Below, in pieces: positions 5,718 through 61,809 of a DNA stretch of 64,000 nucleotides; within the stretch, counting starts at the first letter, position 1, and every line of letters begins with the position of its first letter. The notes beneath the pieces were generated by a model, which did no database searches, was not told the DNA's origin, and saw only the letters and a program-made list of their open reading frames with translations. The stretch spans positions 63,991 through 127,990 of the forward strand of contig CAVUTF010000033.1 of the NCBI GenBank assembly GCA_963744305.1, written 5' to 3'. This DNA is from an uncultured Gammaproteobacteria bacterium (GTDB lineage: Bacteria > Pseudomonadota > Gammaproteobacteria > Steroidobacterales > Rariloculaceae). A program made the position numbers and the translations under genes.

Positions 5718-6098
5718 ATGAATATCTGCTCGCGCGGGCTCATCTTGCTTGCCGTTCTCGCGATCACATCCACCGCCCTCGCCCACCATTCGGTCGCGCT
5801 TTACGACACCGATCATCTGACGACGCTGAAAGGCGTCGTGACGCGCATCGAATGGACGAGCCCGCACGTTTTCGTTTACTTCACGGCGACCGAGGCGGAC
5901 GGCAAGACCGCCGAGTGGTCGATGGAGCTCGATCCGCCGGTGCTGCTGCGCCGCTACGGTTGGTCGAAGGAAACCGTCGCTGTCGGTGACGAGATCAGCT
6001 GCACCGGTGCACCCGCGAAATCGGGAGCCAAGGCGATGCGCGGTGCAATCGTCGAGCTTCAGGACGGCACGCAGCTGCGCGTGTGGTCGCGCGTCTGA
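5718..6098 (+). CDS. family B secreted protein (uncharacterised; mature N-terminus His-His)
   Basis: The signal peptide ends TSTALA|HHSVALYD. Then RIEWTSPHVFVYF and LLRRYGWSKE follow. It is a paralog of 53019-53441 and of the N-terminal domains of 59435-60619, 7162-8304 and 60766-61809. Confidence 0.7.
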   Translation: MNICSRGLILLAVLAITSTALAHHSVALYDTDHLTTLKGVVTRIEWTSPHVFVYFTATEADGKTAEWSMELDPPVLLRRYGWSKETVAVGDEISCTGAPAKSGAKAMRGAIVELQDGTQLRVWSRV

Positions 6099-6108
6099 CC
6101 CGCGGCGC

Positions 6109-7119
6109 ATGCGTGTTTTTTATCTCGTCCTGCTTCGGAAGTACCTCGTACAAGCCATTGTTATTTCAGCGATGATGATCGGCGTCGGAAACGCTCAGGC
6201 GCCGCCTCCCGCGGGCTTTCCCGGCACCGCGCCGCAAGGGCCGGCCGCAACCATCGTGCGCTTCGAAGCCTCCGCGCGGTCGATCGAGCCGGGGGAGTCG
6301 GTGACGTTGCGTTGGGAAGCGCTGAACACGTATTCGGTCACGATCGAGCCCGAGCTCGGCGCGGTCGCGACGCGCGGCAGCCGCGCGTTGTCGCCGCGCG
6401 CAACCACGACGTACACGCTCACGGTCACCGGCACCGGCGGCACGAAGAGCGCGGCCGTTACCGTCACCGTCGCGGGCACCACAGCCATCGATGCGCCCGC
6501 GAACGTTGCCGCCGAGCTCCCTGTGCCGCGCCTACCGAACGGCCAACCGGATCTTTCCGGTGTGTATCTCGGCGGCCGCGACATTCGCATGGCAAGCACG
6601 ATTGCGCTCAAACCAGGCGCGGAAAGCTTTCGCGTGCCGCAGCGCGACGACGATCTCGGTCAGGGCGCGCAGTGCCTGCCGCCCGGCGTGCCCGGCGCGA
6701 CGATGTCGCCGTTTCCGCTGCAGATCGTGCACAAGAGCGATCTACTCGTGATTCTGTACGAGGCCTACAACATCTTTCGGATCATCCCGATCGGCCGCGA
6801 CCATCCCGAGGATCTCGACCCAACCTGGCTCGGCAACTCGGTTGCGCATTGGGATGGCGACACGCTCGTTGTCGACGTGGTCGGCTTCAATGACAAGACT
6901 TTGATTGCGGGGCATCGCCACACCGAAGATCTGCACGTCGTCGAGCGTTACCGCCGTGCGTCGCACGGCGCGATCGAGTACGAAGCGACCGTCGAGGATC
7001 CGAACGTGTTCGCGACGCCGATCAGATACTCCGGCGAGCTGATCCTGCATCCCGAATGGGAGATCGGCGAGTACATCTGCGCCGAGAACGCCAAGGACTA
7101 CGCCGAGCTCTTCGAATAG
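6109..7119 (+). CDS. family A secreted protein with N-terminal Ig-like domain (uncharacterised)
   Basis: A hydrophobic N-terminus is followed by an Ig-like segment (IVRFEASARSIEPGESVTLRWEAL...TYTLTVTGTGG). Family A motifs follow: QCLPPGVPGATMSPFPLQIV, HWDGDTLVVDVVGFND, VVERY and VEDPNVFATP. Confidence 0.7.
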   Translation: MRVFYLVLLRKYLVQAIVISAMMIGVGNAQAPPPAGFPGTAPQGPAATIVRFEASARSIEPGESVTLRWEALNTYSVTIEPELGAVATRGSRALSPRATTTYTLTVTGTGGTKSAAVTVTVAGTTAIDAPANVAAELPVPRLPNGQPDLSGVYLGGRDIRMASTIALKPGAESFRVPQRDDDLGQGAQCLPPGVPGATMSPFPLQIVHKSDLLVILYEAYNIFRIIPIGRDHPEDLDPTWLGNSVAHWDGDTLVVDVVGFNDKTLIAGHRHTEDLHVVERYRRASHGAIEYEATVEDPNVFATPIRYSGELILHPEWEIGEYICAENAKDYAELFE

Positions 7120-7161
7120 ACGGACCTAGCGGCACGGCCCCCGCGATCGTGTGATCTTCAA

Positions 7162-8304
7162 CTAGCGGACCGCGCAGTTGAACGGCATGACTCGGTCGCC
7201 GGGCACCCATGAGCGCTTCTGCTCGACCGGCTCGGTCAGCGAATCCGGAGCCGTGATCGTCAGCGAGTAGTGAAGGCGGCTGCCGTCCGCGCTCGGCGTG
7301 AAACGCTCGAGCAGTCGCGCGCCGGCGCCGAGCGGCACGCCGCGATTATTGATGTACTGTGCGTCGTTTATGCGACTCGTATCGATGACGAGCGTCGGTC
7401 CTTCCCAGCGGCCCGTCGAATAACCGAGCGCCGTTTCCGGTTCGGCTGCCGCGTTCGCGTCACTGCGCATGTGGATCGTTCGAACGGTGTCGTACTCCTC
7501 GATGCGCAGCAGAATCGTGTCGCCCCGGTCGACGAGCTCGATCGGAAACGGTTGGTTCATGATGTCAGGCATGCCCTTCGGCGTGCACCCGGGCGCCGTC
7601 GACTGCTCGACCGGATTGAATGCCGCAACGGCCGCCTGCGCCGCCGGCGTCAACGGCAGCGGCACTCTCGAAAGAGACTGCGGCGATGCATCCGGATCAT
7701 CGGGCCTGACGGAAGAACCGAAAACAGATGCCCACACGCGAAATATCGTGGCAGCGACCCGCGACGACCCGCGTCTCCCGTACCGGAGCGACCTGCCACG
7801 TAACCGTGCGCTGTATTTGCCCAGCGCGGCTTCGATCGCCACAGCACGAATTCCTGTCCGTCGGCCGACAGCATGTTCGTGCCGTACATCCGCACGCCCG
7901 AGCGCTTCGATGGCCAGCCGGCGACCTTCACGCGGCTGCCCACAGTCGAAAACCTCGAGCGGCATCTGCAAGCGGCGCAGATAGTTGAGACCGGACGTTT
8001 CGATCTCCCACGTGACGAGGCTGCCGTCGGGACCCGCGGATTTCACTTCGATGTGAGCATGTGGGTTCTGCCATACGACATTCAGAAGCTGCCCCTCGAC
8101 TTCGATCGTCTGCGCGCTATCAAACTCCGTGTACGAGTGATGCGCGGCCGCGCTCATAGATGCCGCGAAGCAGATCGAACAAGCGATGGCTACGGTTCGT
8201 CGATGTCGTGTTTGCAAGGAACCTCCAACTAATGCGCGATCCCAGTCGCCAGCGACGCCGGCGGCGGACTGCGGCGGCGCTAATATACTGTAGTCATGAC
8301 GCAA
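7162..8304 (-). pseudogene. family B + family A fusion protein, frame broken twice mid-gene (start uncertain)
   Basis: The N-terminal part reads SAAA|HHSYTEFD...VVWQNPHAHIEV. The C-terminal part reads GCTPKGMPDIMNQPFPIELV...RWEGPTLVIDT...LLERFTP. The linker is only recovered in another frame: ORF 7650-7943 gives VKVAGWPSKRSGVRMYGTNMLSADGQEFVL, which aligns to paralog 60766-61809. Confidence 0.6.
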
Positions 8305-8867: not shown

Positions 8868-9809
8868 TTATCTATTGCGTCCTTTTTCTCGGTGAACGTG
8901 AACTCGCCGAACTGCGAGGCGCCGTCCTCGGTTTGCACGATCGCGTTGTTCGGATTCTCGCTGCAGTGCCAGTAGCCGATGCGCAGATAGCCGTCCGGGA
9001 TTCGGCACCTGCTCGTAGGTCTGCATCACGTACCAAGGCTCCGTCAGCGTCTGCGGATCGTAGACCCAAACGTCGGCGGTGACCGTGTCGGCGTCGATCT
9101 TGCGCCAAGCCTCGACGGTCTCGAGCTGCTCGGAGTACTGCGGATCGTTGCGGTGGAAGATACCGGCCGTGACCTGGCTCGTGTGAATTACGAGCGTGTG
9201 GCCCGACCAAAAACCGATCGAGTCGCCGTAGTAGAGCGGATAAGCGTCGGCAGCCGACGGATGATCGCGGCCGTCGGTATAGATGCGGCGCAAGTTGTTC
9301 GTGGTCTCGGAGAACAACCAGGTCTGTGCGGGCGTCACGATGAACTCGCGCAAGAAAGGGATCGCGAGCCAGCGCGGGTAACCGGGCGGGCTGCAGTCGC
9401 TGATCGGGTCGTATTCGATGTCCTGCGCGGAGAGCTCGCGGCGGCGTTGCAGCTCCGCGAGCGGGCCGGGCTGCAATTTCGCGGTCGTGAGCTCGGTGAA
9501 CTCCTGCTCCGGATCGAAGAACGGCCGGCCGGTGCGCACCCACAAACCGGTCCAATCCGGCATGTCGTCGAGCGACAGCGGCGTTCCGCCGTTCGCGCGC
9601 ATCTTGAGCGCCTGATAGAGCTCCGATGCGCTCGCATGCTGCAGCCCGAGCGCCACCTTCTCCTCGCGCGAGCCCGGCACGAGCTCGGTGCCCGCGCTCG
9701 CGGTAGCGGCAGCCGGCGGGGCGGAGTCGGCACCCTGCTCTTGGGTGCACGCAGCGAGAGCGACGACCGCAAGCGGTGCAACCATTCGAACGGCGCGGCG
9801 GACGTTCAT
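8868..9809 (-). CDS. family A' lipoprotein (uncharacterised), 3' end frameshifted
   Basis: Lipobox VVALAAC. Motifs are DCSPPGYPRWLAIPFL, RRIYTDGRDH and GDSIGFWSGHTLVIHTSQ. The conserved C-terminus (YLRIGYWHCSENPNNAIVQTEDGASQFGEFTFTEK) continues in another frame. A T5 run at 8883-8887 sits at the expected stop region. Confidence 0.6.
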   Translation of the reverse strand: MNVRRAVRMVAPLAVVALAACTQEQGADSAPPAAATASAGTELVPGSREEKVALGLQHASASELYQALKMRANGGTPLSLDDMPDWTGLWVRTGRPFFDPEQEFTELTTAKLQPGPLAELQRRRELSAQDIEYDPISDCSPPGYPRWLAIPFLREFIVTPAQTWLFSETTNNLRRIYTDGRDHPSAADAYPLYYGDSIGFWSGHTLVIHTSQVTAGIFHRNDPQYSEQLETVEAWRKIDADTVTADVWVYDPQTLTEPWYVMQTYEQVPNPGRLSAHRLLALQRESEQRDRANRGRRLAVRRVHVHREKGRNR

Positions 9810-9819: not shown

Positions 9820-10731
9820 CTATTCATCGTCGTCCTGTGTCGTGAACGTGAAATCGCTGAATTGCGAGGAACCGTCCTCGGTGCGAATCACCTCGTTGTT
9901 CTGGTTCTCGCCGCAGTGCCAGTACCGAATCCGCAGGTTCTCCTCGTCGGAGAGCTTCGTGTAGGTCTGCTTCGCGTACCAGGGCTCGACCAACGCCGGC
10001 GGATCGTACACCCACACGTGCACGGTGATATTGCGGTCGTCCGTCTTCTCCCAGATCTCGACCGTCTCGACTTGTTCCGTGTACTCGGGCTGCGTCCGTT
10101 GGTATTGGCCGCTCGTGAGCTGATTCGTGTGAATGACGAGCCTCTGTCCGTCCCAGAAACCGATCGAATCGCCGTTATAGAGAGGATAGCGATCCGCTTC
10201 GGGCGTATGCCCGCGGCCGTCCGTGTAAATGCGGCGGATGTCGTTCGCCATCTCGTTGATGAGCCACGTCTCCTTCGGCGTCGGGATGAAGTCGCGCAGG
10301 AAAGGCTCGGTGAGCCAGCGCGGATGGCCCGGCGGCGCACAATCGGACAGCGCATCGAACTCGATGTCCCTCGCGATACGGTCGAGCTTGTCGGTCAAGC
10401 GTTTCTGAAACTCCGGCGTGAGCTTCGCGGTCGGCAGCCGATTCGTGCCTTGGTCGGGATCGAAATTGAAGATCACGCCGCCGCGCGTATAGACGCCGCT
10501 CCAATCGGGCATCGTCGCCGGCGCGCGGCCGCCGTTTTCCGCCTGTCCCTCGAATGCTTTATAGAGGTCCCATGCCGTGCGATGCTTCCGGCCGAGCTCG
10601 ATCAGTTGCTCCTTTGCCGCGGGAAGCGCAATCGCGGCGAGCGCAGTCGTCGGCAAGGCGCACACGAGGGCCAACAGGAGCTTCCAATAAGTGCTGCGAT
10701 GCGTGCTGCGATGAAACGTGCCCGTGGTCAT
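9820..10731 (-). CDS. family A' secreted protein (uncharacterised), intact paralog
   Basis: The signal peptide is followed by DCAPPGHPRWLTEPFL, RRIYTDGRGH, GDSIGFWDGQRLVIHTNQ and RIRYWHCGENQNNEVIRTEDGSSQFSDFTFT. RBS GGGGGAG. Its stop lies 10 nt upstream of the next paralog's start. Confidence 0.65.
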   Translation of the reverse strand: MTTGTFHRSTHRSTYWKLLLALVCALPTTALAAIALPAAKEQLIELGRKHRTAWDLYKAFEGQAENGGRAPATMPDWSGVYTRGGVIFNFDPDQGTNRLPTAKLTPEFQKRLTDKLDRIARDIEFDALSDCAPPGHPRWLTEPFLRDFIPTPKETWLINEMANDIRRIYTDGRGHTPEADRYPLYNGDSIGFWDGQRLVIHTNQLTSGQYQRTQPEYTEQVETVEIWEKTDDRNITVHVWVYDPPALVEPWYAKQTYTKLSDEENLRIRYWHCGENQNNEVIRTEDGSSQFSDFTFTTQDDDE

Positions 10732-10783
10732 GGCTCTCCCCCAGTCCGGACCTTGGGACAAGCTAAACCTTAAGGACTCGCGC

Positions 10784-12200: not shown

Positions 12201-12235
12201 TATGCGCCGACGATAAGAAACGGAAGGGGGTTGCC

Positions 12236-14006: not shown

Positions 14007-14050
14007 AAGACCGCTAGAGCTAAACCGCGCCCGGCGGCGGACGCGACCAT

Positions 14051-15342: not shown

Positions 15343-15362
15343 CAACTTTCGGAGACCTGAAG

Positions 15363-17249: not shown

Positions 17250-18804
17250 ATGCTCGCCAGATTCTGTTTCGCGATTGCCCTCGCCACGGGCGCGGCATCG
17301 GCCCAAGAGCTGCCGCGCACGGCGGACGGCAAGCCCGACCTGCAGGGCATCTGGCAGGTCCACAACCGGGCCTCGTACGACCTCGAGATCACGTCGCGCG
17401 GCACGTCATGCCCGCGGGCCGAGCGTCGTCGACGGCGACGAGATTCCGTATCAGCCGTGGGCGCGCCGAGCAGCAGCGCGAGAATTTCGCGAACCGCGCG
17501 ACGGCCGATCCGCTCGCGCAGTGCTACCTGCCCGGCGTGCCGCGCATCATGTACATGGAGTATCCGTTTCAGATCTTCCAAACGGCCGAGCACGTCGCGA
17601 TCACGTTCGAGTGGTCGCAGGTATATCCGGCTCATCTACGCGAACGGCACAGCCGACGCTGCACGAAGGCATCGAGTCGTGGATGGGCAACTCGCGCGGC
17701 CGCTGGGAAGGCGACGTGCTCGTCGTCGAGGTGACGGATCACAACGACCGACCTGGTTCGATGCGGCCGGCAACTTCCACAGCGACGAGCTGCGCGTCAC
17801 GGAGCGCTACACGATGCGCGACGCGAACACGATCGACTACGAGGTCACGATCGAGGACCCGAAAGTGTTCACGCGGCCGTGGACGATCCGCATGGCGCTG
17901 CACCGCCAAACGGACTGCCGCGGATCTTCGAGTACCAATGCCAGGCGGAGCTCGAGGAGGCGAACGGCGCGTTCGAGCGCGACGAGCGGACGTGGTATCC
18001 GGCGCCGGCGCCGGCCGACAACGCGCCGTTCGATCGCGCGCGCCGGCGCGAACGCTGCCGCGCACTCGCGACGCCGCGCGACATCCCGCGGCTCGCCGAC
18101 GGCAAGCCCGATCTCAACGGCTGGTATCAGAGTCGATGCCGGCGGCGCGCAACTACGGTCTCGAAGGCAGCCCGCAGATATTTCTGACGCCCGAGAGCCG
18201 CGGCATCGTCGTCGATCCGACCGACGGCAAGCTGCCGTATCAAACGTGGGCGCGCGCCGAGCGCGTCGATCGCGACGCTGCCGCACCGCGGCTACGACGA
18301 TCCGACGGCGCACTGCTTCGTCGCGGGCATCCCGCGCTCGCATTACGTGCCGCGCCCGTGCACATCCTGCAACCGCCGGGCTGCGTCGTCGTGCTGTTCG
18401 AGCGCATGTCGTGGCGGCACATTGCGCTCGACGGCCGCGCCGCATCTGCCGGATCACTGCGCCTTTGGCAGGGCGACTCGATCGGCCGCTGGGAAGGCGA
18501 CACGCTCGTCGTCGAGACGAAGAACTTCAACGGCAAAGCGTGGCTCAACGAGGTCGGCGACGTCTTCAGCCACGCCGCAGACCGTCGTCGAGACGCTTCA
18601 CGCCCGTCGAGCGCGGACACAAGTGATCTATCGCGCGACGGTCAGCGACCCGATCGCCTACACTCGGCCGTGGACGATCGAGGTGCCGATGAACCGGCAA
18701 GCCGACGAGCTGCTCGAGGTCGCGTGCCACGAGGACAACAACGATCTCGAGCACTTGAAGCACGTGCGCGACGAATTCCGCGCGCAGCAAGGCAGGAGAA
18801 TTGA
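17250..18804 (+). pseudogene. tandem double family A protein (A-A), many frame breaks
   Basis: Signal peptide MLARFCFAIALATGAASAQ. The first unit reads DGKPDLQGIWQ...QCYLPGVPRIMYMEYPFQIF...RWEGDVLVVEVTDHND...VTERY...IEDPKVFTRPW. The second unit reads DGKPDLNGWYQ...HCFVAGIPRS...RWEGDTLVVETKNFN...VSDPIAYTRPW. The pieces are spread across all three frames. Confidence 0.6.
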
Positions 18805-18808: not shown

Positions 18809-19225
18809 ATGACTCGAATAGTCTCGGCATACGCCGCGCGGTCGCCGTCGCTCGCGGCTCTCGCGGGCAACGGCGCCGCGGCGCATCACTCGTTCTCGGC
18901 CGAGTTCGATCCCGAGCAGGCCCGTGAAGCTCACGGGCAAGGTCACCGAGATGCAAGTTGTCGAATCCGCACGCGTGGATCTACATCGACGTGGCAGGCG
19001 ACGGACGGCAAGGTCGTCAACTGGGCGCTCGAGATGAGCGGCGCCAACGGCTTGATCCGCCGCGGCTGGCGCCGCGAGGACCTCCCGGCCGGGCACAGTG
19101 CTGTCAGTCGAAGGCTGGCAGGCGCGCAACGGCAGCGCCGACGGCCAACATCTCGACGGTCACGTTCGAGGACGGCCGCACGTCTGTTCGCCGGCTCGTC
19201 GAATCCCGCTGCCCGGCAGCAATAG
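18809..19225 (+). pseudogene. family B secreted protein, about 3 frame breaks
   Basis: RBS AGGAGA at 18794-18799. The sequence reads ...GAAA|HHSFSAEFD, then in other frames [40 protein letters not shown] and [12 protein letters not shown]. These match 53019-53441 block by block. Confidence 0.6.
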
Positions 19226-20841: not shown

Positions 20842-21852
20842 CTAGTTTGTCACGCGTGCCGCGCTCGCATCCGCGGGCGCTGAGCTCAAGCTTCGGTAGA
20901 CGGCGTCGACGAATTGCTCGGTGGTCCAAAAACCGTTGTCGGCGCCGTAGCGTCCATCGTAGTCGCGCGTGGGCTTCGCGGCCTGCACCTGCCGCAGGCT
21001 CATGCCCATCTCGATCATCGCGGCGACGCGGTCGCGAATGATCGTGACCATATCACGATACTCGACGACGTCGGCTTCGTCCGCCAATCGCCCGTGGCCC
21101 GGGATCACCATTGTCCCGCCTTCTTGTTTCTCCGCAGGCACGGTGAGCGCAATGATCGCGTTGAGCGCCGCGACGACGCCGTCGATGCCGCCGCCGTCCT
21201 CGGCGCGAATCACGGGGTACAACGTCGTCGAGAACACGTCGCCCGCGCTGATCACGTCGGAACGCCGGAAGAACACGATGCTGTCGCCATCGGTGTGCGC
21301 CGCGGGCAGATGTTGGATCTGCACGGCTTCACCGTTGAAGAATAGATCTTTCTGCGGCACGAAGAACGTGTCGGTCGGCCACGCTTCGAACGGCGGCGGC
21401 GCCTTCTGCCCCGACATCCTCACGAGCACGTTCTCGTGCGCGATGACTGTCGCGCCGATTCCGGCGTCAGCGATTGCGCCGGAGACGTTGCCGCCCGCGA
21501 TCGTGCTGCCGGCGCGCGCGATCTGCTCGTTGCCGCCCACGTGGTCGGAGTGCCAGTGCGTGTTGATCACGTAGCGGATAGGCGCGGAGGAGATCTGCGC
21601 GATCGCGCCCAGCAACGCCTCCGACGCCGTGGCGAGCTTCGTGTCGACGACGAGCACGCCATCCTCGCCGACTTGCACAGTCGTGTTGCCGCCGGCACCG
21701 ACGAGCATGTAGATGTTGTCGCGCACCGGCCAGACTGCGGGCGCGGGCGACGCGAGACGGGCGTCCTGCTGTGCACGAGCCGCCGTGAGGGCGAGCGCCG
21801 AGGCGAGCGCTGCGACGATCACCGCGCGGGCGAACGTCACGACGCGCGGCAT
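20842..21852 (-). CDS. MBL-fold metallo-hydrolase, secreted
   Basis: The signal peptide MPRVVTFARAVIVAALASALALTAARAQ is followed by the metal motif INTHWHSDHVGGN. Later blocks are AAHTDGDSIVFF and VIPGHG. The start is taken at the internal ATG of the 630-aa ORF. Confidence 0.8.
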   Translation of the reverse strand: MPRVVTFARAVIVAALASALALTAARAQQDARLASPAPAVWPVRDNIYMLVGAGGNTTVQVGEDGVLVVDTKLATASEALLGAIAQISSAPIRYVINTHWHSDHVGGNEQIARAGSTIAGGNVSGAIADAGIGATVIAHENVLVRMSGQKAPPPFEAWPTDTFFVPQKDLFFNGEAVQIQHLPAAHTDGDSIVFFRRSDVISAGDVFSTTLYPVIRAEDGGGIDGVVAALNAIIALTVPAEKQEGGTMVIPGHGRLADEADVVEYRDMVTIIRDRVAAMIEMGMSLRQVQAAKPTRDYDGRYGADNGFWTTEQFVDAVYRSLSSAPADASAARVTN

Positions 21853-22604
21853 GGTTGCGGGTTCCAGCGCGCTTCGTCGGGCTCGCGCCTGAAGTGTGAG
21901 CTCGTGACGAAGCGCGTGTTCAAGTATTTCGGATCCTCGACGATCGCCGTGACCATGAGCCACTCGTCGCCGTTGGGCGCGCGGAAGCGATCGAAATACT
22001 CCGTGAGCACGGCGTCCTCGCTGTACGGAACACCGTTGCGGCGCAGCCAGCCCGGCAGGAGATTCGTCGTGATCACCTTGAGATACCCGCCAGGCCGCTG
22101 CTGCCCGCCGCCCGCGCCGGCGAGCCCGGGCCCGCCGGGCGGAGGCAACGGCCGCACCCATTCTGCGGCTGAGTGCCCCTGCAGCGATCGCGCACCGGGA
22201 GCGCCACTGCCGTCGAAGGTAAACCGCCGAGTCTGTCGCCCCGCGTCCGTCTCGATCACGAGCGCGTCGTCCCCATCCCAAGCGATTCGCAAGCGGGTCG
22301 GCATACGCATGAGCGCTGCCGCCCCGTACGCCTCGCACCCGCCATCCTGCGAAGGCTCCCACAGATCCGCGATGCGACGGCCTTCGTCGTTCAGCGGCAC
22401 GCTCGCGTAGTCGCCGTGCGGCGGCGTCACCATGCGCCAGCGCCAATCCTCGTTGACGATCGCGACCCACTGGCCGGTAAAGTCGAGCGCCGCGGACTCG
22501 CGGGGCGTTTGCGGCGGCGCGGAAGATGCGGGCGGCTGTGCATGCACACCGATGGCGCCGGGAAGCAGAACGGCGGCAGCGGCAAGCGCGCGAGGCCAGC
22601 TCAT
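21837..22604 (-). CDS. family A'' secreted protein (uncharacterised)
   Basis: Signal peptide MSWPRALAAAAVLLPGAIGVHAQ. Blocks are IAWDGDDALVIETD and LPGWLRRNGVPYSEDAVLTEYFDRF...IVEDPKYLN. It parallels 22601-23443, and its start overlaps the upstream stop (ATGA). Confidence 0.6.
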   Translation of the reverse strand: MSWPRALAAAAVLLPGAIGVHAQPPASSAPPQTPRESAALDFTGQWVAIVNEDWRWRMVTPPHGDYASVPLNDEGRRIADLWEPSQDGGCEAYGAAALMRMPTRLRIAWDGDDALVIETDAGRQTRRFTFDGSGAPGARSLQGHSAAEWVRPLPPPGGPGLAGAGGGQQRPGGYLKVITTNLLPGWLRRNGVPYSEDAVLTEYFDRFRAPNGDEWLMVTAIVEDPKYLNTRFVTSSHFRREPDEARWNPQPCRAS

Positions 22605-23443
22605 CGCAAGCGCTCCGCGTATTCCGGCAGTGCGGTCTGCGCGCCACCGCGCGCCGCCTCGACCGGCAACCGGTGCTCGGCGGCGAAGTCGTCGATGAAC
22701 GGGTTTTGCCCCGGTAAGTAGTGCGGCACATCACCGGGCGCGCGCAGCACCTCGACGACGGACTCGCACGGATACGGCGTCATCGTTCCGTTCGGCGAGA
22801 ACAGGAACTCGTTCGTTTTCACGAGCGGCTCGGTTAGGTAGACAGGATCCTCTACGATCATCACATGCGTGAGCACGTCTCCGTAGCGGTGGAACCGATC
22901 CGTCATCGTCGCGCGATCGCTGAGCGGCAAGCCGTTGCGGCGCATCCAACCCGCCTTGAGATGAGTCGTCTTCACGACGAGCACGTCGCCTTCCCAGCTG
23001 CCCGTCGAGAATCCCTGCCAGGTGTGCGGCGCATACTCCGGCGGATGCTGCCGGCCGTCCATCCAAATCTCCCGATGCTGCTCCTGCCACGCGATGTGCG
23101 TGTGGATCGTGAGGAGCTGCTGCGTGTCCTCGTCGCGGTCTTCCCAGATACGCAGCACGCCGACGCCTCTGAATCCGTAGGTGGACGGGTGTGGTTTGCA
23201 TTGATGCTCGGGCATCGACAGGAGCGACGCATCCCAGCTCTCGGCGCGCAGGCGCGCAGCGTCGTTGATCGGCAAACCGAGATAGTCGCCGATCGCGGGC
23301 CCCGGAATGCGCTCGTCAACGTCCTCGTGGAATAACGGGTTCCAGTAGCCGACGAGATTGAGCTGCGCCGATACCGGGAGCGCATGGACGCATGCGAGCG
23401 CAGCACTCAGCCACGCAAAGCGTGCGCGATTCCAACCTGGCAT
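22601..23443 (-). CDS. family A'' secreted protein (uncharacterised)
   Basis: A signal peptide (...ACVHALPVSAQ) is followed by HQCKPHPSTYGFRG, SWEGDVLVVKTTHLKAGWMRRNGLPLSDRATMTDRFHRY and IVEDPVYLTEP. RBS GGGGGAG lies upstream of the ATG at 23443. Confidence 0.6.
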   Translation of the reverse strand: MPGWNRARFAWLSAALACVHALPVSAQLNLVGYWNPLFHEDVDERIPGPAIGDYLGLPINDAARLRAESWDASLLSMPEHQCKPHPSTYGFRGVGVLRIWEDRDEDTQQLLTIHTHIAWQEQHREIWMDGRQHPPEYAPHTWQGFSTGSWEGDVLVVKTTHLKAGWMRRNGLPLSDRATMTDRFHRYGDVLTHVMIVEDPVYLTEPLVKTNEFLFSPNGTMTPYPCESVVEVLRAPGDVPHYLPGQNPFIDDFAAEHRLPVEAARGGAQTALPEYAERLR

Positions 23444-50652: not shown

Positions 50653-51132
50653 TCAGATGAAGCCGATTGCGCGGCCCATGAACGCCACGCCGAACCACAG
50701 CGACACCGACACGACTGCAACCACCTTCGCGAGGCCCGATTGCGACCGCCCCGCGTCGCCCAATGCGATCGGCTGGCGCACGGCGAACGTGAAGATGATC
50801 GCCGCGAGCAGAAAAGACATCTTCCACCAGTACGCCACGTTGTAGTAGTACTTCGACGCCGCTAGCGACGCGAACAGCAAAAAGCCCGTCGCGAGAATCA
50901 GGATGAGACTGCCGATGAGCCAAGGCCGCGCCGCAAGCGCGACGTCCGCGACGGGCTGGCGGCGGAAGCCAACTCCAAGCGTCCGCAAATCGACGACGAG
51001 CACCGCGCCGCCGATCACGGCGAGCGCAACCAGATGCACCGACTCGATCAGCGCAAAGGCGTAGAGCGAATTGTTGATTGCAACGGCGAATCCCGTCGCT
51101 TCGATCCACTCGAATGCCGACAATAGCGACAT
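50653..51132 (-). CDS. integral membrane protein, paralog of 51146-51682 (uncharacterised)
   Basis: There are 4-5 hydrophobic helices. It shares FEWIEATGFA / ITWVEATRFS, ES(V)H..., and a C-terminal W...GRxIGF/AY with its neighbour. Confidence 0.6.
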   Translation of the reverse strand: MSLLSAFEWIEATGFAVAINNSLYAFALIESVHLVALAVIGGAVLVVDLRTLGVGFRRQPVADVALAARPWLIGSLILILATGFLLFASLAASKYYYNVAYWWKMSFLLAAIIFTFAVRQPIALGDAGRSQSGLAKVVAVVSVSLWFGVAFMGRAIGFI

Positions 51133-51145
51133 GGCAGCTCCTAGA

Positions 51146-51682
51146 CTAGACGATCGGCTCGAACCAGTTGTACGCGATCAGACGACCGCAGAACACGATT
51201 AAGATCCACAGAGTAACGGACACGACTCCGATGATGTGGGCGCTGCCAGGCAACGGCTTCGTGTCCCAATTGACTAGGCGCTTGCCGATGCCATAGTGAA
51301 ACGCAAGCGCGTTTAGGCCGGCCAGCACCAACGCAACGAGCTTGATCCGAAAGAAAATGTTGCCCCAGAACCGCACGGGCTCCGAGACGAACAACAGCAC
51401 CCCGCTGATCGTCATCACGATGAAGCCGACGAGAATGATCGGCGCGAGCCGATCCCACGTCTCGGACACCGAAGCGCTGCGTACACCGATGTTGAACAAA
51501 CGCAACTCCCAGAACAGCAGCAGCCCTAGGAAGATACACAGGCCGATCACGTGCACGCCGTCGACGATCGCCCACATGTAGACGGACTCGCGAAGGTCGG
51601 TGCTGAAACGCGTGGCTTCTACCCACGTGATGAAACTCAACCAAGACGACACTGATCGATTCCTCTTCAGAAGGGCGGTCAA
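51146..51682 (-). CDS. integral membrane protein, paralog of 50653-51132 (uncharacterised)
   Basis: 4-5 hydrophobic helices. It is in tandem with its paralog, separated by a 13-nt gap. Confidence 0.6.
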   Translation of the reverse strand: MTALLKRNRSVSSWLSFITWVEATRFSTDLRESVYMWAIVDGVHVIGLCIFLGLLLFWELRLFNIGVRSASVSETWDRLAPIILVGFIVMTISGVLLFVSEPVRFWGNIFFRIKLVALVLAGLNALAFHYGIGKRLVNWDTKPLPGSAHIIGVVSVTLWILIVFCGRLIAYNWFEPIV

Positions 51683-51876: not shown

Positions 51877-52149
51877 GTGGCGCTTGGCGGCGCCCGTGGC
51901 GCCTGGGAGGGCGCACGGCCGGCGGCCGAATTCTCCCCGCCCTGCGTTCAGGGTGGTCCTCCGGGAGGCCCGGGCGCGCCGAACGCGCCGCCGACGGCCG
52001 AGGACTTCGACAATCTGCCGGCCACCCTGGCGTGGACGGGCGCTGATCGCCGGCTCGGCGACACGGACGCGGCCGAAACGGGCGCGGCCAAGCTCACGTT
52101 CTTCGACTCAGCGTATAAACAACAAATGCAGGGCGGGACTCATCCATGA
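51877..52149 (+). CDS. possible small ORF translationally coupled to the family A gene (weak)
   Basis: The stop TGA overlaps the ATG of 52146 (ATGA), and third positions are GC-rich. There is no family match, and an ATG at 51872 in another frame gives a signal-like MAWRLAAPVA, so the N-terminus may be frameshifted. Confidence 0.2.
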   Translation: MALGGARGAWEGARPAAEFSPPCVQGGPPGGPGAPNAPPTAEDFDNLPATLAWTGADRRLGDTDAAETGAAKLTFFDSAYKQQMQGGTHP

Positions 52150-52991
52150 AACCGATGCGAGATCAGTTTTCCGGCCAGATGAAGGTCGTTGTGGGCACCG
52201 CGATCGCGGCCGGCCTTGCCGTGATCGCGCTCGTCGCGATAAAGATGCCGACGAGCGAAGCGCAATCGGCGACTCAACCCGCTCGAATCGGCGGCCATCC
52301 GAACTTGAACGGCGTCTGGCAGGCGATCAACACGGCTTACTGGAATCTCGAGGATCACTCGGCCGAAGGGTTGTCCAACTTCTGGCAACTGGGTGCGATC
52401 GCCGCGATCCCCGCCGGGCAGAGCGTGATCGAGGGCGGCACGATTCCGTACCTGCCGGCCGCGCTCGCAAAGCGCGACGAAAACCGCGCCGGCTGGCCCA
52501 AGAGCGATCCCGAGGCCAAGTGCTACATGCCCGGGATTCCGCGCGCGACCTACATGCCGTTTCCGTTCCGCATCGTTCAAGGCGACCGCGACATCTTGTT
52601 CGTCTACGAGTTTGCGAGCGCGAACCGCATTGTTCATATGTCAAATCACCAGGAGCCGCCCGTAGACAGCTGGATGGGCTGGTCGAACGGGCGCTGGGAA
52701 GGTGACACACTGGTCATCGAGGTCACCGGCAACAACGACCAAACTTGGTTCGATCGCGCGGGCAACCATCATTCGGTAGCGCTCAAAGTAACCGAGCGCT
52801 ACACGCTGATGGGCGACAATCACCTGCAATACGAGGCGACCATCGAGGATCCGGACACCTTCTCGCGGCCCTGGAAAATCTCGATGCCGCTCTACAAGCG
52901 CCTGGAGCCGAACGTGCAGCTGCTCGAGTTCAAATGCGTGGAGTTCTCCGAAGAGCTACTCTATGGCGACTTGACCAAGAAATCCGAATAA
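52146..52991 (+). CDS. family A secreted/anchored protein (uncharacterised), intact
   Basis: An N-terminal hydrophobic anchor is followed by HPNLNGVWQ, KCYMPGIPRATYMPFPFRIVQ, RWEGDTLVIEVTGNND, VTERY and IEDPDTFSRPW. Confidence 0.7.
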   Translation: MKPMRDQFSGQMKVVVGTAIAAGLAVIALVAIKMPTSEAQSATQPARIGGHPNLNGVWQAINTAYWNLEDHSAEGLSNFWQLGAIAAIPAGQSVIEGGTIPYLPAALAKRDENRAGWPKSDPEAKCYMPGIPRATYMPFPFRIVQGDRDILFVYEFASANRIVHMSNHQEPPVDSWMGWSNGRWEGDTLVIEVTGNNDQTWFDRAGNHHSVALKVTERYTLMGDNHLQYEATIEDPDTFSRPWKISMPLYKRLEPNVQLLEFKCVEFSEELLYGDLTKKSE

Positions 52992-53018: not shown

Positions 53019-53441
53019 GTGATGCGTACCAAACAGTTGAGCGTTGTCGCCGGTGCCCTGCTGCTGTGCGTTCCCACGTTGCCCGTGCTTGCACATCACG
53101 CGTTCGCGGCAGAGTTCGACGCGAATCGTCCGGTCAAGCTCGAAGGCGTCGTCACGAAGATGGAGTGGATCAACCCGCACTCGTGGATTCATATCGACGT
53201 GAAGGGCGATGACGGCTCGGTGCAAAAGTGGATGATCGAAGGTGGCGCTCCGAACGCTCTGCTGCGCCGCGGCTGGAATCGCGACTCGCTGAAAGCCGGC
53301 ACTCAGATCTCGGTACAGGGCTTTCAGGCAAAAGACGGATCGATGCGCGCGAACGGCCGCGACATCACGTTCGCTGATGGCAGCAAGCTCTTCGTCGGCT
53401 CCTCCGGCACCGGCGCACCGGACGAGCGCCCGGGGCAATAA
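53019..53441 (+). CDS. family B secreted protein (uncharacterised), intact
   Basis: The signal peptide reads ...PTLPVLA|HHAFAAEFD. KMEWINPHSWIHIDV and ALLRRGWNRDSLKAGTQISVQG follow. RBS GGAGAG. It starts 27 nt after the family A gene. The ATG at 53022 is an alternative start. Confidence 0.72.
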   Translation: MMRTKQLSVVAGALLLCVPTLPVLAHHAFAAEFDANRPVKLEGVVTKMEWINPHSWIHIDVKGDDGSVQKWMIEGGAPNALLRRGWNRDSLKAGTQISVQGFQAKDGSMRANGRDITFADGSKLFVGSSGTGAPDERPGQ

Positions 53442-54750: not shown

Positions 54751-54768
54751 GTGATATTTACCTCTTCG

Positions 54769-56621: not shown

Positions 56622-56653
56622 TTCCGCCCCCTGCACCTATCAGCAATAACGTC

Positions 56654-57621
56654 TCATTGAGCCACGCTCGCGAGCGCAGCTTGCGCGCACTCGTTTGCAA
56701 CCGTGAGATACCGACGCACGGAGTCCGCGCCGACGACATACGGGTGCGCGTCTCCGGACTTGCGCGCCGCGAGCTTCGGCAGCTTGACCTTCGTGCCATC
56801 GTAGTCGGTGTGATTCGACAGCAGCACGTCCGCGCCGGCCGCCGCCGCAATGTCGCGCATGCGCGCGGCAGACGCGGCATAGGCCTTGAAGCGCTCGGGC
56901 TCGGGGCCGAAGTTGAACAATGTGCCGCCCCACAGCGCGCCTACGTGCGCGCGCCCGCCGTCGCGCAACGGGATCAGCGTCGACACGGTGCCGTTCGTGT
57001 GCCCCGGCGTGAGGTACATCGTGAGCGTCGTGTCGCCGAGCGTGAGCTTCTGGCCGTCGGTGATTTCCATGTCGCGGCGCGGCTTCCAGGGCGGATTGTC
57101 GCGCTCGAGCATGTCCCAGTCCGCAGCACTCATCAGGAGCCGTGCGCCGAAGCGTTCCTGCAGAAGCTTCGCACCGCCGGCGTGGTCGAGATGGCCGTGG
57201 CTGATCAGGACGTACTCGATGTCGGCCGGATCCATGCCGAGCTTGCGCAAGCCATCGACGACCTCGTCCTCGACCGAATAGTCGAAGAGCGGATCGATGA
57301 CGATGATGCCTGCGCTCGTGCGGACCGCCCAGGCCGTGAACTCCGTCATGCCGACGAAATAGAAGTTGTCGAACACTTTCGCGGGCTCCGCGTGCCACGA
57401 CTCGCGCGGCGGCGTCGGCGGAGGCGGCCGACGCGGATCGGCGGCCGCCACGGCGGCGGCCGCAGCCGGGCCGGGGCAGAGCCGGTCGACCATCGCGGCG
57501 TGCTCGCCCGCCGGCGGCGCGAGCGGCCGCGATGTGCCGTTCGACGGCCGGGTTCGGCGATTGAGCGAAGACGGCGCCAGCGAGACGTCACCGCGACGAA
57601 GCCGAAGACGAACGCTTTCAT
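56654..57621 (-). CDS. MBL-fold metallo-hydrolase (subclass B3-like), secreted; N-terminal frameshift near 57580
   Basis: FYFVGMTEFTAWAV, ISHGHLDHAGG, TPGHTNG and SNHTD are present. The signal-peptide start MKAFVFGFVAVTS lies in another frame (ORF 57346-57621). RBS GGGGGAG. Confidence 0.8.
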
Positions 57622-57649
57622 CTATGCAACTCCCCCGCGCCAACCCGCC

Positions 57650-59386: not shown

Positions 59387-59434
59387 TTATTCCCCCAAGG
59401 ACGGTGTCAGGCACCGTTTTGTTGCTTTCGGTGA

Positions 59435-60619
59435 TCAGTCCCAGAACTTCCACCACGGCTTCGCCGGAGGCGCCGGCACGTCCGGCGCGTCGGCCGTCGC
59501 TGACGCTTCTTGGCCGGCGCGCGAGTAGTCGACGAACGTGAGCTCGGTGCACTTGTCCGGCGCGTATGGCAAGTCGGCCACGCCGATCGTGTCGGAGCCC
59601 GTGTACTGTCCGACGATGTTCACGGGATCCTCCGCGGTGTAGCTGCGCGTGATCTGCATCGTCTCCGGGTTCAGGGAGAACCGCTCGACGACGCGCAGTT
59701 GAGCGCTGTTCATGATCGGCGGCGACAAGACACCGGGCGCGAACCCGACCGTGTCGACGATCAACACGTCGTTTTCCCAGCGGCCGATCGAGTGCCCCGC
59801 GCGGCTCGGCGCGACGTTGGCCGGGTGCTCCGTCATGTCCATGTGGATCGTCCGCGTGAAACCGAGCTGGCCGTACTGCAACGTGATCGTGTCGCCGCCC
59901 TGCGTGATTCGGTTCACCGGGCCGTCGAAGGTCCAGTCGAACAGGATGCTCGTGGTCTCGCAGCGCATCCGGGGGTTCTCGGTGGTGTACGTGTCGAACG
60001 CGTCGGCTGCCGCCTTGCCGGCCTCCGTGTACTGCACATCGCGCGTGCGGTACTGGCGCGCGTTTGCTTCGGTCTCTTCGCCCGGTCGAAAACTCTCGGC
60101 TTCGCTGAGCGGCACGAGCGCGCCGCCGCGCCCGCGCGGATCCGTCATGACGAGCTGCTCGGGCGCCCAGTCGCCCGAAATGTTCGGCTCGCCGCTCGGC
60201 AGGCGCGCCGGCCGCGCTATCGGCTGCACCGGCGCCGGAGCTTTCGCGAGCTGGCCGTAGCGATCGGCGCTCGTGCCGTCGGCGAACACGATCGTGGAGA
60301 GATAGCACGAATTCGGGTCATCGCGATCGGGCGCGCCCGTGATCGTGACCTCCTCGCCGTTCTTGAACAGCTCGGGCGACCAGCCCGAGCGGCGCAGCAC
60401 GGTGGCCGCTCGCATCTCGCAGCGCCAGTTCGCCGTCTGCCCGTCTTCTTTGGTGACGGTGAGATACAGCCAGGAATGCGGATTCACGAAGTCGACGCCG
60501 GTGACCGTGCCTTTGATCGCGACTTCGCCGTTGCGGTCGAAGTTGCCGAAGCCGTGATGCGCCAATGCCGCGCTAGCGAGCAATGCAACCGCCGCAGAAA
60601 CGCTGACAGCTCGAATCAT
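59435..60619 (-). CDS. family B + family A fusion protein (uncharacterised), intact
   Basis: The signal peptide reads ...LASAALA|HHGFGNFD. Then GVDFVNPHSWLYLTV and VLRRSGWSPE (B domain) are followed by a linker and EPNISGDWAPE, RWENDVLIVDTVGFA, VVERF and AEDPVNIVG (A domain). RBS AAGGGAG. Confidence 0.72.
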   Translation of the reverse strand: MIRAVSVSAAVALLASAALAHHGFGNFDRNGEVAIKGTVTGVDFVNPHSWLYLTVTKEDGQTANWRCEMRAATVLRRSGWSPELFKNGEEVTITGAPDRDDPNSCYLSTIVFADGTSADRYGQLAKAPAPVQPIARPARLPSGEPNISGDWAPEQLVMTDPRGRGGALVPLSEAESFRPGEETEANARQYRTRDVQYTEAGKAAADAFDTYTTENPRMRCETTSILFDWTFDGPVNRITQGGDTITLQYGQLGFTRTIHMDMTEHPANVAPSRAGHSIGRWENDVLIVDTVGFAPGVLSPPIMNSAQLRVVERFSLNPETMQITRSYTAEDPVNIVGQYTGSDTIGVADLPYAPDKCTELTFVDYSRAGQEASATADAPDVPAPPAKPWWKFWD

Positions 60620-60765
60620 CGCCCGCTCCCTTGGCAGATTGGCCGCGTTCCATAGTAACAAACAACCCGCGGGCCAACCTGCGCTTTCGCCGCTCGAGCG
60701 GAGGCGTGTTGGGCACCTGATATCATGCGGCGCCATGGCGATGTGTCGCGGTCCGGAGGGCAGGA

Positions 60766-61809
60766 AGTGGTGAGAGAGAGCATTTGCTTGGGCGTTCTGT
60801 TGGCGCCGGTGGCAGAGCTTTTGCCATCACAGCGTCGCGTCCTGGTTCGATTCGAGCCAGGTGACGGAGCTTGAAGGCGAGCTCACCGAGCTCAAGTGGC
60901 AGAACCCGCACATCGTGTTCACTCTGAAGGTCACGGGCGAGGATGGACGCGAAACGCTCTGGGATATGGAGTCGCTGTCATTGAGCGGCGTGACCCGGAC
61001 GGGTCTTACACCCGACCTGCTCGTCGTCGGCCAAACCTTGAAGGTGGCCGGCAATCCGTCGCGACGAAACCTCAACAACGTGTTCGTGCGCAACATTCTG
61101 CTGCCGAGCGGCCAAGAGATCGTGCTCGGCCAGCAAGCGCGCTGGACGGCCGACTCGTCGCTGCGCGGCAGTGAAGTCCTACGAGAGCGCGACGGCGACA
61201 CATCGGCGCCCGCGCAAGGCATCTTCCGCGTCTGGAGCACGGGCTCCGGCACGTCGATGATCTTTCCGGAGAACATCACACCGAACTTCGACTTCAGCGT
61301 CTATCCCCTGACGCCCGCTGCAAAAAAAGTCCTCGACGAGTTCGATACATTTGAGGACGATCCGACGCGCAACTGCGCCCCGAAAGGCATGCCGTTGCTC
61401 ATGGAGCAGCCGTACCCGATGCAATTCGCGCGCGAGGGGGACGACATCGTGCTGCGGCTCGAGGAATACGACTCCCGCCGTGTGATTCACATGGACGCTG
61501 AGTCCGCGTCGGCGGCCGCTCGAGCGCCCGCTTCGCTCCTGGGCTACTCCGTCGGACGCTGGGAGGGCCGAGCGCTCGTCGTGACGACGACGCGCGTCAA
61601 TTTCGGCCACTTCGACAGCGTCGGAATCCCGTTGAGCGAGGCCGCCGAGATTCGTCGAGCGGTTCACGCCGAGCGAGGACGGCGCCCGCCTCGACTACGC
61701 GCTGACCGTGACCGATGCCGCCACATTCACGCGTCCCGTCGAGACGTCCAAGCACTGGATCTGGCTGCCCGGGATACGGTCGGCCGCTACGCCTGCTCTC
61801 GCGCAATAG
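60766..61809 (+). pseudogene. family B + family A fusion protein, about 3-4 frame breaks
   Basis: GTG follows GGAGG. The signal-like (V)RESICLGVLLAPVAEL then shifts at a T4 run (60819-60822) to HHSVASWFD...ELKWQNPHIVFTLKV. NCAPKGMPLLMEQPYPMQFA and RWEGRALVVTTTRVN follow. The C-terminus VERFTPSEDGARLDYALTVTD is in another frame. Confidence 0.6.

Follow-up and report, generated by a model that had tools for sequence, protein, structure and literature searches.

Why does a stretch of 64,000 nucleotides (nt) from an uncultured gammaproteobacterium (contig CAVUTF010000033.1; the whole stretch is called the window here) give about one in five of its genes to two families of exported proteins with no attached function, and what might these proteins do together? 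A first-pass annotation of the window had described them as Family A and Family B, counted at least 12 genes, and proposed a periplasmic system rather than a scatter of random hypotheticals. The present analysis identifies 13 genes, which comprise 11 Family A domains in 10 genes together with six Family B domains. All of the loci listed earlier proved to be present and homologous, as judged by Pfam, a hidden Markov model (HMM) of Family A and a local HMM of Family B. Family B corresponds to the Pfam family DUF6152 (PF19649), which carries a name and no function. Family A and DUF6152 form a real, conserved periplasmic module, not a set of random hypotheticals, since their adjacency and fusion are kept across phyla. 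We propose, with a probability of roughly 40% for the model as a whole, that this is a periplasmic metalloprotein module in which a conserved metal centre is combined with diversified barrels. Three features come in addition to the first-pass annotation, namely a predicted His-His mature N terminus of DUF6152, a pair of DUF6644 genes at 50653-51682, and frameshifts in several of the genes.

Family A and DUF6152 are encoded together

Neighbourhood statistics were drawn from 80 genome loci centred on Family A and 80 metagenome contigs centred on DUF6152, chosen by similarity to the window genes A4 and B3 (Table 1); subfamilies other than those close to A4 and B3 were sampled anecdotally. A DUF6152 domain lies within 10 kb in 66 of the 80 A-centred loci. 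Together these loci hold 90 DUF6152 domains, eight of them fused to a Family A domain and 69 situated no more than 300 nt from a Family A gene on the same strand (77 of 90 together), with DUF6152 as the downstream gene in 58 of the 69 pairs. The reverse test, run on the metagenome contigs, finds a same-strand Family A gene directly adjacent to 44 of the 46 DUF6152 genes that have enough flanking sequence to either side. The first-pass annotation had proposed to test A/B homologs in other genomes for enrichment beside PQQ dehydrogenase or MBL genes. It had held that a lack of adjacency there, whether to each other or to quinoprotein or MBL genes, or domains of known role in both families, would speak against a system. 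The A-B link is much stronger than it had claimed, and neither family maps to a domain with a known role.

The arrangement seen most often is A(type 1)-A(type 2)-DUF6152. Across the 160 loci, 310 proteins have the domain architecture A, 172 have B, 17 have A-A and eight have B-A, with no instance of A followed by B; all 11 fusions, eight elsewhere and three in the window, place B at the N terminus. Stand-alone neighbours in the window lie 4 to 27 nt apart (Table 1). Comparable arrays occur in other genomes: a locus of Proteobacteria bacterium UBA1148 (L059) holds about nine A and nine DUF6152 domains within 20 kb, and another locus (L039) holds 12 domains, so the window's expansion is not unique to this genome. 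Taken together, these counts make the A-B partnership very probable.

That there is no system at all, and that unrelated or locally duplicated hypotheticals, or pseudogene debris, cluster here incidentally, is hardly credible. Several window copies are indeed frameshifted, with about ten changes of reading frame in 17250-18804, further changes in 18809-19225 and in the middle of 7162-8304, and one in 60766-61809 (near 61650). However, these are errors of the assembly. Indel frameshifts are dense at 10700-19800 and occur additionally at 7650-8040, 57600-59400 and about 61650, and unrelated genes at 10.7-19.8 kb are equally hit (an SSF symporter, two pyrroloquinoline quinone (PQQ) dehydrogenase genes and HpaB). 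A 97%-identical contig (L085) carries an intact tandem A-A gene of 514 amino acids (aa), whose two A domains match the A HMM at 5e-107 and 5e-62, an intact DUF6152 gene of 136 aa with PF19649, and PQQ and MFS genes that are likewise intact, and the copy of 60766-61809 in the 97%-identical genome (compared with L002) is frameshifted at other positions than the window copy. Because the orthologs are intact or shifted elsewhere, the frameshifts are, on this comparison, indels left in the consensus of a metagenome assembly made from noisy long reads. The pseudogene reading was rejected for the same reason, and the frameshifted A/B genes should be regarded as functional. Adjacency and fusion kept across several phyla likewise argue against incidental clustering, as do orthologs of the A/B genes at 60-97% identity in many metagenomes.

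A putative metal site at the processed N terminus of DUF6152

The four intact DUF6152 copies of the window score 121.5, 93.8, 89.8 and 57.3 bits against PF19649, for which the gathering threshold is 27 bits. The local HMM finds exactly six copies, including 18809-19225 and the N terminus of 60766-61809 (+ strand), the two frameshifted copies, which are recognised through this HMM and through intact orthologs carrying PF19649. Pairwise identity among the B domains of the window is 22-46%. Two consecutive histidines stand at the position of the mature N terminus in 86 of 86 DUF6152 sequences from several phyla, nearly always right after an AxA-type motif, and are found in all six window copies. 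Across 28 diverse mature sequences there are five invariant columns, H1, H2, G18, P28 and H29, and D9, N27 and W46 are near-invariant; of the invariant residues, only the three histidines are polar.

All A and B members of the window begin, judged by eye, with a signal peptide or a lipobox (LAAC in 8868-9809), as the first-pass annotation had stated, and the motif in DUF6152 predicts signal-peptidase cleavage directly before His-His. Three histidines, two of them created as N-terminal residues by processing, are a classic metal-site signature, which suggests a putative site in DUF6152. A free alpha-amine at the N terminus is the defining feature of histidine braces (PMC10952591). The constant N-terminal position of B in fusions fits the need for such a free amino terminus.

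Structural information comes from an AlphaFold (AF2) model of the intact fusion A5B (59435-60619), computed from a 131-sequence alignment, with a predicted local distance difference test (pLDDT) score of 81.7 and a predicted template modelling (pTM) score of 0.78. In its DUF6152 domain, five main strands and a short helix follow the order of an oligonucleotide/oligosaccharide-binding (OB) fold. The A domain has a mixed N-terminal region of about 100 residues with helices and strands, followed by ten consecutive strands. The best Foldseek matches in the PDB are OB folds for the N-domain (SSB, PriB and the LysRS anticodon-binding domain) and CRABP/CRBP (FABP-like) barrels for the C-domain (E about 6e-3). 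The labels of an OB-like fold for B and a 10-strand calycin-like barrel for A are provisional, because the Foldseek matches are weak. In the modelled secondary structure, H29, part of an NPH motif, sits in the beta1-beta2 turn, and W46 and a frequent Glu sit on beta3, which would place all three on the canonical OB binding face. A single-sequence AF2 model of B3 was unusable (pLDDT 47), and a DUF6152 profile searched against PDB sequences gave spurious matches or none, the spurious matches in the Family A, DUF6152 and DUF6644 searches being of the kind of phage GA coat protein and SUMO.

Family A, its subtypes and a possible carrier role

The A HMM was made from 82 representatives; in the window it picks up every core and A' locus as well as App2, and nothing else. 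The A regions of the window members have no Pfam or NCBIfam match at E <= 1; for the full proteins, the only above-threshold matches are those of DUF6152 in two fusions, all others being weak and below threshold. None of 31 diverse Family A members matches a Pfam family at E <= 0.1, lipocalin and YceI included, and searches of Family A against the PDB (phmmer and profile) returned no credible match. The earlier statement that neither family has an assigned function is thereby borne out, as Pfam, NCBIfam and the PDB contain no match for Family A, and B matches DUF6152 only. Additionally, neither A nor B has a Pfam or NCBIfam match to accessory families of PQQ dehydrogenases (cytochrome c partners, MxaJ/XoxJ-type), and a search of the accessible literature found no paper mentioning DUF6152 or DUF6644, Family A being absent from it as well.

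The family is large and widely distributed. A4 has more than 8000 homologs in a set of 5.8 billion proteins, which is a lower bound, and among the 120 matches listed all are 'hypothetical' or unnamed and none has a Pfam domain; an exhaustive phmmer search from A4 gives 10,451 clusters at E <= 1e-3 (50%-identity representatives). The DUF6152-A fusion and the A'' subtype are of comparable abundance, with more than 5000 homologs of App2 and no Pfam domain among the 120 matches listed for it. Species-representative genomes with Family A belong to Gammaproteobacteria, Alphaproteobacteria, Acidobacteriota (Bryobacterales, Vicinamibacterales and Terriglobia) and Gemmatimonadota, and almost all are metagenome-assembled genomes. 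Among cultured bacteria, the family occurs on sphingomonad and Cupriavidus replicons, the carriers including Novosphingobium humi (KACC 19094), Novosphingobium sp. PP1Y, Croceibacterium atlanticum (26DY36) and Cupriavidus campinensis.

Pairwise identity among the window's A domains is 20-42%. Invariant in the 31 diverse members are the Gly of a G-x-W motif (its Trp is near-invariant), two Cys, G130, P132, G206, I143, R161, E217 and Y229, and many Trp are conserved. The Cys motif had been given as C-x-P-x-G-[IVM]-P; this form needs correction for most members, which read C-x-x-P-G-[IVM]-P, and C-x-P-x-G-M-P does fit some. The Cys pair most likely forms a disulfide stapling the N- and C-terminal parts.

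Two diverged subtypes extend the picture. A'' genes adjoin a gene for a metallo-beta-lactamase (MBL)-fold protein in six of six contexts (the window, L168, L169, L087, L170 from Vicinamibacterales, and L018), and the MBL link is specific to this subtype, in the form of a cassette A''-A''-MBL. App1 is tied to Family A through its identity to App2, and its ortholog matches the A HMM at 3e-6. HpaB and flavin reductase genes are also present in L169, and in L087 they are divergent from a cassette with the order App2-MBL-App1. L087 additionally has a 601-aa open reading frame (ORF; 1782-3587) in which an App2-like A'' domain runs on into an MBL domain that lacks a signal peptide of its own; as it comes from a similar long-read assembly, it is only a possible fusion, the other explanation being assembly read-through. 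A 586-aa App1+MBL 'fusion' in L085 was dismissed as an artefact, as its MBL part retains its own signal peptide. The matching layouts of A-A-DUF6152 and A''-A''-MBL suggest that a third subunit, a histidine-rich metalloprotein, is served by A barrels in pairs. Within the A' subtype, Ap1 is the closest in-window relative of sphingomonad (plasmid) A genes adjoining DUF6152, and a homolog of Ap2 (70% identity) lies directly upstream of a DUF6152 gene in L086.

We lean slightly towards Family A being a ligand-binding barrel. Such a barrel could also work without any metal, ferrying hydrophobic or aromatic substrates, or PQQ or quinone, between the outer and inner membranes and the enzymes of the periplasm (PQQ dehydrogenases, MBL hydrolases), with DUF6152 as a structural or docking subunit whose histidines make protein or ligand contacts. 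The calycin-like barrel with FABP/CRABP as best fold matches would suit this explanation, as would the invariant Arg, Glu and Tyr, the many conserved Trp and the Cys pair, and a diversification of A paralogs that resembles substrate-binding families. The catabolic setting (HpaB, flavin reductase, hydroquinone dioxygenase, PQQ and MBL enzymes, Amidohydro_2) and neighbouring TetR, MarR and LysR regulators, which sense small molecules, point the same way. However, it leaves unexplained why the invariant polar residues of DUF6152 are just three histidines, of which two lie at the processed N terminus, and why B is N-terminal in all fusions, and the fold assignment of A is weak. A non-metal carrier appears unlikely.

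Neighbours of the cassette and the routes they suggest

The ORFs of the 80 genome loci were clustered without prior assumption, and the density of each family was then measured against distance from A/B genes. No neighbour keeps as close to the cassette as the DUF6644 pair, which reaches 8.1 genes per 100 kb at distances up to 1 kb from A/B genes vs 0.8 or less farther away; it is adjacent in the window, in 16 of the 80 other loci and in N. humi. PQQ dehydrogenases reach 4.6 per 100 kb within 1 kb vs about 1 beyond 6 kb, which is an enrichment of about four- to fivefold, and many of those next to a cassette carry a CxxCH cytochrome domain. MBL genes show a weak signal based on small numbers (2.3 per 100 kb within 1 kb vs 0-1.9 farther). 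TonB-dependent receptors, present in 14 of the 80 loci, are flat (1.2 within 1 kb vs 0.5-2.3 farther) and were rejected as a recurrent partner for lack of distance enrichment. The first-pass annotation had placed the two families always near periplasmic redox or hydrolase genes, and counted six quinoproteins, two MBL hydrolases, a vicinal oxygen chelate (VOC) protein and an HpaB monooxygenase. For the window this is accurate, with four PQQ and two GSDH genes, two MBL genes, one VOC/glyoxalase gene and one HpaB gene. Elsewhere 'always' does not hold: PQQ genes occur at about a quarter of the 80 loci, the MBL association is weak, and HpaB, VOC and GSDH neighbours occur at one of the 80 loci each.

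The DUF6644 pair is divergent from A4-B3 in the window, and the identical layout is found on a Novosphingobium humi plasmid (DUF6644x2 | hyp-A-DUF6152-TetR). It consists of two subfamilies, each with about four hydrophobic segments (by eye), which have in common one invariant His, a DLRLLG motif, and invariant Lys and Arg positions. The second window gene, 51146-51682, aligns with the 'GRMIAYNW' subfamily, which shares the one invariant His. DUF6644 is not a Pfam CopD member; its members cross-match DUF2214 (5 of 12, 3e-5), UPF0093/HemJ (4 of 12) and CopD (1 of 12, 8e-4, a relation below threshold), families that form one Pfam clan. A DUF6644 profile searched against PDB sequences gave spurious matches or none.

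These membrane proteins could turn the module into a copper acquisition or trafficking device resembling CopC/YcnI-CopD, in which the N-terminal His of DUF6152 would take Cu(II) and pass it to the DUF6644 pair or to apo-enzymes with no catalysis involved, the DUF6644 pair would import the metal, and the A barrels would act as adaptors or metallophore binders. DUF6152 has an invariant His as its predicted mature N terminus and conserved Asp/Glu and Trp, and YcnI likewise relies on its N-terminal His together with a Glu and a Trp. CopC/YcnI domains are typically encoded beside CopD genes (PMC12362106), which parallels the tight localisation of DUF6644 and its cross-matches to CopD, DUF2214 and UPF0093, and in some loci a TonB-dependent receptor follows right after the cassette. 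Against this stand the absent distance enrichment of those receptors, DUF6644 adjacency in only about 20% of loci, a near-obligate partner A that has no counterpart in CopCD systems, and diverged multi-copy arrays (13 genes in the window, 18 domains in L059) that are unusual for metal homeostasis. The regulators seen near cassettes are of the TetR, MarR, LysR and AraC types, with no copper-responsive regulator or copper gene. Trafficking of this kind is an unlikely account.

A second route would run through electrons: A/B would relay them from PQQ quinohemoproteins to the quinone pool via a haem-b DUF6644 heterodimer to which each subunit contributes a single invariant His, in the manner of SdhC/SdhD or HemJ. 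PQQ-cytochrome c genes often directly adjoin the cassette, each DUF6644 subunit has its one invariant His, and the cross-match to UPF0093 leads to the HemJ family, HemJ being a haem-b protein. A faint Sdh_cyt match (E = 0.098) adds to this but is not significant. A site made of His only, with neither Cys nor Met, would be an atypical electron-transfer copper centre, A and B have no haem-binding motif, and most cassettes have neither PQQ nor DUF6644 neighbours. An electron-transfer adaptor is very unlikely.

Two further observations concern the neighbours. A protein family termed cluster 'c11' is found in seven loci (L009 at 2608-4065, L017, L037, L042, L026, L029 and L056), beside DUF6152 in several of them, and has a length of about 486 aa, with an N-terminal CxxCH cytochrome c motif, followed by HH...H...HxH...M, and a weak Pfam cytochrome match (0.0087); by eye, its His/Met motifs look like those of PHM/DBH-type copper monooxygenases. 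The PQQ enzymes of the window carry W-D-[YL]-D, and the idea that they use lanthanides was dropped, as this motif is not diagnostic and occurs in glucose-dehydrogenase-type enzymes too.

A proposed metalloprotein module and its counter-evidence

The metalloprotein model combines these elements as follows. Family A and DUF6152 would be subunits of one Sec-exported periplasmic module, encoded as A-(A)-B operons or B-A fusions. DUF6152 would be a small OB-like beta-barrel that gains His-His as its amino terminus when the signal peptide is removed; these two residues and the invariant His of the NPH turn, probably joined by conserved Asp/Glu and Trp on the OB face, would create a mononuclear metal site resembling a histidine brace. 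Metal binding by DUF6152 is likely, and the analogy to CopC, YcnI and lytic polysaccharide monooxygenases (LPMOs) makes Cu(II) the best candidate. Family A would be a disulfide-stapled calycin-like barrel of about ten strands, whose diversified paralogs could give the metal centre its ligand or partner specificity; in the A'' subtype, a secreted MBL-fold metalloprotein would replace DUF6152 beside the A-A pair. The setting would be periplasmic oxidative catabolism, often coupled to PQQ quinohemoproteins and to a CopD/HemJ-like DUF6644 heterodimer.

Several observations weigh against this model. Cleavage before His-His is a prediction from motifs seen by eye, and an OB fold is not known from any histidine-brace protein. 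Foldseek found no PDB match of the A5B model at E <= 1e-3; the best matches, at E of about 3-9e-3 and a target-normalised TM score of 0.45-0.66, denote weak similarity. The 31 diverse Family A members have no invariant His or Met, so there is no obvious contribution of Family A to a metal site. A mirror-tree comparison gave no significant correlation between A and B over the six pairs of the window (r = 0.31, Mantel p = 0.15). DUF6644 and PQQ genes are each found in only about 20-27% of loci, and no copper-homeostasis gene or copper-type regulator was seen nearby or among the recurrent neighbour clusters.

A redox or catalytic role of the module is doubtful. In its most specific form, DUF6152 would supply an OB-fold histidine-brace copper centre and, with Family A barrels as substrate-binding subunits, make up a periplasmic copper oxygenase or peroxygenase, with electrons fed in by PQQ quinohemoproteins, or by the quinone pool via the CopD/HemJ-like DUF6644 pair; this is quite unlikely. 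Its substrates would be small hydrophobic, aromatic or humic soil compounds and not polysaccharides.

Comparison with known systems

The known classes of histidine-brace copper proteins (LPMO, CopC, PmoF1, X325 and YcnI) are beta-sandwich folds (Ig-like, FnIII-like or cupredoxin-like). DUF6152 agrees with histidine-brace proteins in having His as residue 1 after removal of the signal peptide, as its motif implies, but its predicted N-domain fold is OB-like and lies outside the Ig-like, FnIII-like and cupredoxin-like classes. A brace has a second ligand that makes the site T-shaped, either the tau-N of a His or, in YcnI, Glu plus Trp; the candidates for it in DUF6152 are the invariant H2 and H29 and the near-invariant D9 and W46. 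With CopC/YcnI (DUF1775)-CopD, the module would share a cleaved signal peptide exposing an N-terminal His (predicted in DUF6152), further His, acidic and Trp residues, a small all-beta protein, and CopD-superfamily-like DUF6644 genes beside the cassette (in the window and 16 of 80 loci). It differs in its Family A barrel partner, which is absent from CopCD, in its diverged multi-copy arrays and the lack of copper regulators nearby, and in DUF6644 being a pair of proteins of about 160 aa whose CopD cross-match stays below threshold. The folds differ as well, as YcnI is reported to be cupredoxin-like (PMC12362106), unlike the predicted OB-like DUF6152, and there is no sequence homology between them.

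In fungi, a PQQ quinohemoprotein (pyranose dehydrogenase, AA12+AA8) drives a histidine-brace enzyme, LPMO (PMC5960967). The module resembles this couple in that a secreted protein with a predicted N-terminal His, DUF6152, is encoded beside PQQ-cytochrome dehydrogenases and GSDH-type PQQ enzymes. In contrast to it, DUF6152 is OB-like and has no LPMO homology, no polysaccharide-active genes lie near, the PQQ association is statistical (about a quarter of loci) and not obligatory, and catalysis is entirely hypothetical. CusF, a periplasmic OB-fold copper/silver chaperone, compares with DUF6152 as a small periplasmic OB-like barrel with candidate His/Trp ligands on the beta1-beta3 face. However, DUF6152 has neither the conserved Met pair nor CusABC neighbours, its ligands would be N-terminal His-His plus a further His, and no sequence or Pfam relationship between the two was detected. 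Family A recalls the calycins (lipocalin, FABP/CRABP, YceI, ZinT), among which YceI and ZinT are bacterial periplasmic proteins binding isoprenoids or metals, in its predicted 10-strand antiparallel barrel, G-x-W near the N terminus, Cys pair and periplasmic location. It differs by the extra N-terminal region of helices and strands (about 100 residues) and by the lack of a Pfam lipocalin or YceI match in its 31 members.

Because membership of every testable characterised family fails or stays undecided, we rate the module as belonging to no described kind of system, and its chemistry may be a variant of N-terminal-histidine copper handling. The module of Family A, DUF6152 and DUF6644 recurs in dominant uncultured soil phyla, namely Acidobacteriota, Gemmatimonadota and soil Gammaproteobacteria. 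If the copper site is true, it would represent a new structural class of histidine-brace protein, linked to PQQ-dependent periplasmic oxidation, and if the oxygenase reading is true, the module would be to bacteria what the PQQ-dehydrogenase/LPMO couple is to fungi. Even a role confined to moving metal or carrying ligands, if true, would give names to several thousand 'hypothetical proteins' in aromatic and alcohol catabolic clusters.

Gene inventory of the window

The gene map (Table 1) is based on a codon-position GC model, Pfam, and synteny with 97%-identical contigs in the ENA; the G+C content of the window is 63-66%.

Table 1. Family A, DUF6152 and associated genes of the window.
Feature	Position	Strand	Description
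B1	5718..6098	+	Stand-alone DUF6152; signal peptide end ALA|HH; Pfam PF19649 7e-27, local HMM 1e-38; 10 nt upstream of A1
A1	6109..7119	+	Signal peptide, Ig/PKD-like N-terminal domain (weak K319L-like_PKD match, 0.004), Family A domain about 6454-7110; A HMM 2e-46
A2B	7162..8304	-	DUF6152-A fusion, AAA|HH; Pfam 2e-15; A HMM 2e-22; middle out of frame (compensating indels), C-terminal part of B domain located in another frame
Ap1	8868..9809	-	A' subtype; lipobox LAAC; A HMM 2e-23; 51% identity to Ap2
Ap2	9820..10731	-	A' subtype; 10 nt upstream of Ap1; A HMM 3e-16
PQQ beta-propeller dehydrogenases (4)	about 12200-14006, 15409-16894, 28846-30900, 57618-59386
A3	17250..18804	+	Tandem A-A protein; about 10 frame changes; identified by frame plot, three-frame reading and A HMM pieces
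B2	18809..19225	+	DUF6152, AAA|HH; 4 nt after A3; frameshifted; local HMM pieces
HpaB	19251-20838
MBL of A'' cassette	20842..21834	-	Secreted MBL-fold protein; Pfam Lactamase_B 1e-15
App1	21837..22604	-	A'' subtype; stop codon 2 nt from MBL start; 31% identity to App2
App2	22601..23443	-	A'' subtype; 4-nt overlap with App1; A HMM 1e-14
DUF6644 protein 1 of pair	50653..51132	-	Membrane protein; divergent from A4-B3; Pfam PF20349 6e-28
DUF6644-like protein 2 of pair	51146..51682	-	Diverged membrane protein; Pfam 2e-5, below cut-off
A4	52146..52991	+	Cleanest Family A member; cassette type 1; A HMM 5e-132; no Pfam, NCBIfam or PDB match
B3	53019..53441	+	Stand-alone DUF6152, VLA|HH; 27 nt after A4; Pfam 2e-35
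GSDH genes (2)	53494-54750, 63438-63830
Glyoxalase/VOC protein	55713-56636
Second secreted MBL-fold protein	56654-57643
A5B	59435..60619	-	Intact DUF6152-A fusion, ALA|HH; Pfam 1e-25; A HMM 2.5e-15; modelled protein
A6B	60766..61809	+	DUF6152-A fusion, GFC|HH; frameshift near 61650; A HMM 2e-16; B HMM 2e-29

A small ORF at 51862-52149, between the DUF6644 pair and A4 and overlapping the A4 start codon, was discarded as a module member; it appears to be the C-terminal remnant of a carboxylesterase, and its 117-aa ortholog (L001) has a faint COesterase match. A scan for promoters and terminators around A4-B3 found nothing exceeding shuffled expectation. Between two A/B loci, the minus-strand run at 53494-59386 encodes apparently secreted proteins, namely GSDH, DUF8021, a two-domain glyoxalase/VOC protein, MBL and a PQQ dehydrogenase; it is syntenic in 97%-identical contigs, and DUF8021 is annotated in those related contigs only.

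Around the A'' cassette, 19251-28839 is an aromatic-catabolism cluster with an HpaB-family monooxygenase, a flavin reductase, a LysR regulator, the large subunit of a hydroquinone 1,2-dioxygenase (PnpD_N), an MTHFR-like gene and an FAD_binding_3 monooxygenase, and it resembles a hydroquinone or p-nitrophenol-type pathway. A 210-aa ORF upstream of PnpD_N has no Pfam match and may encode the dioxygenase small subunit. At the start of the window (500-2994), an Ada-like methyltransferase/AraC regulator, a 2-oxoglutarate (2OG)-oxygenase-like protein and an AlkB-like protein, recognised by eye, form a DNA-alkylation repair cluster, beside which lie an Amidohydro_2 gene (3526-4545) and an arylamine N-acetyltransferase gene (4842-5717). 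Lastly, 33913-39340 encodes an ankyrin-repeat protein, a DUF1592/DUF1588/DUF1585 'planctomycete cytochrome c' protein and a DUF1552 (HXXSHH) protein, and this trio, or a pair from it, also occurs near A/B cassettes in about seven of the 80 loci, in other phyla (L004, L006, L038, L046, L029 and L057).

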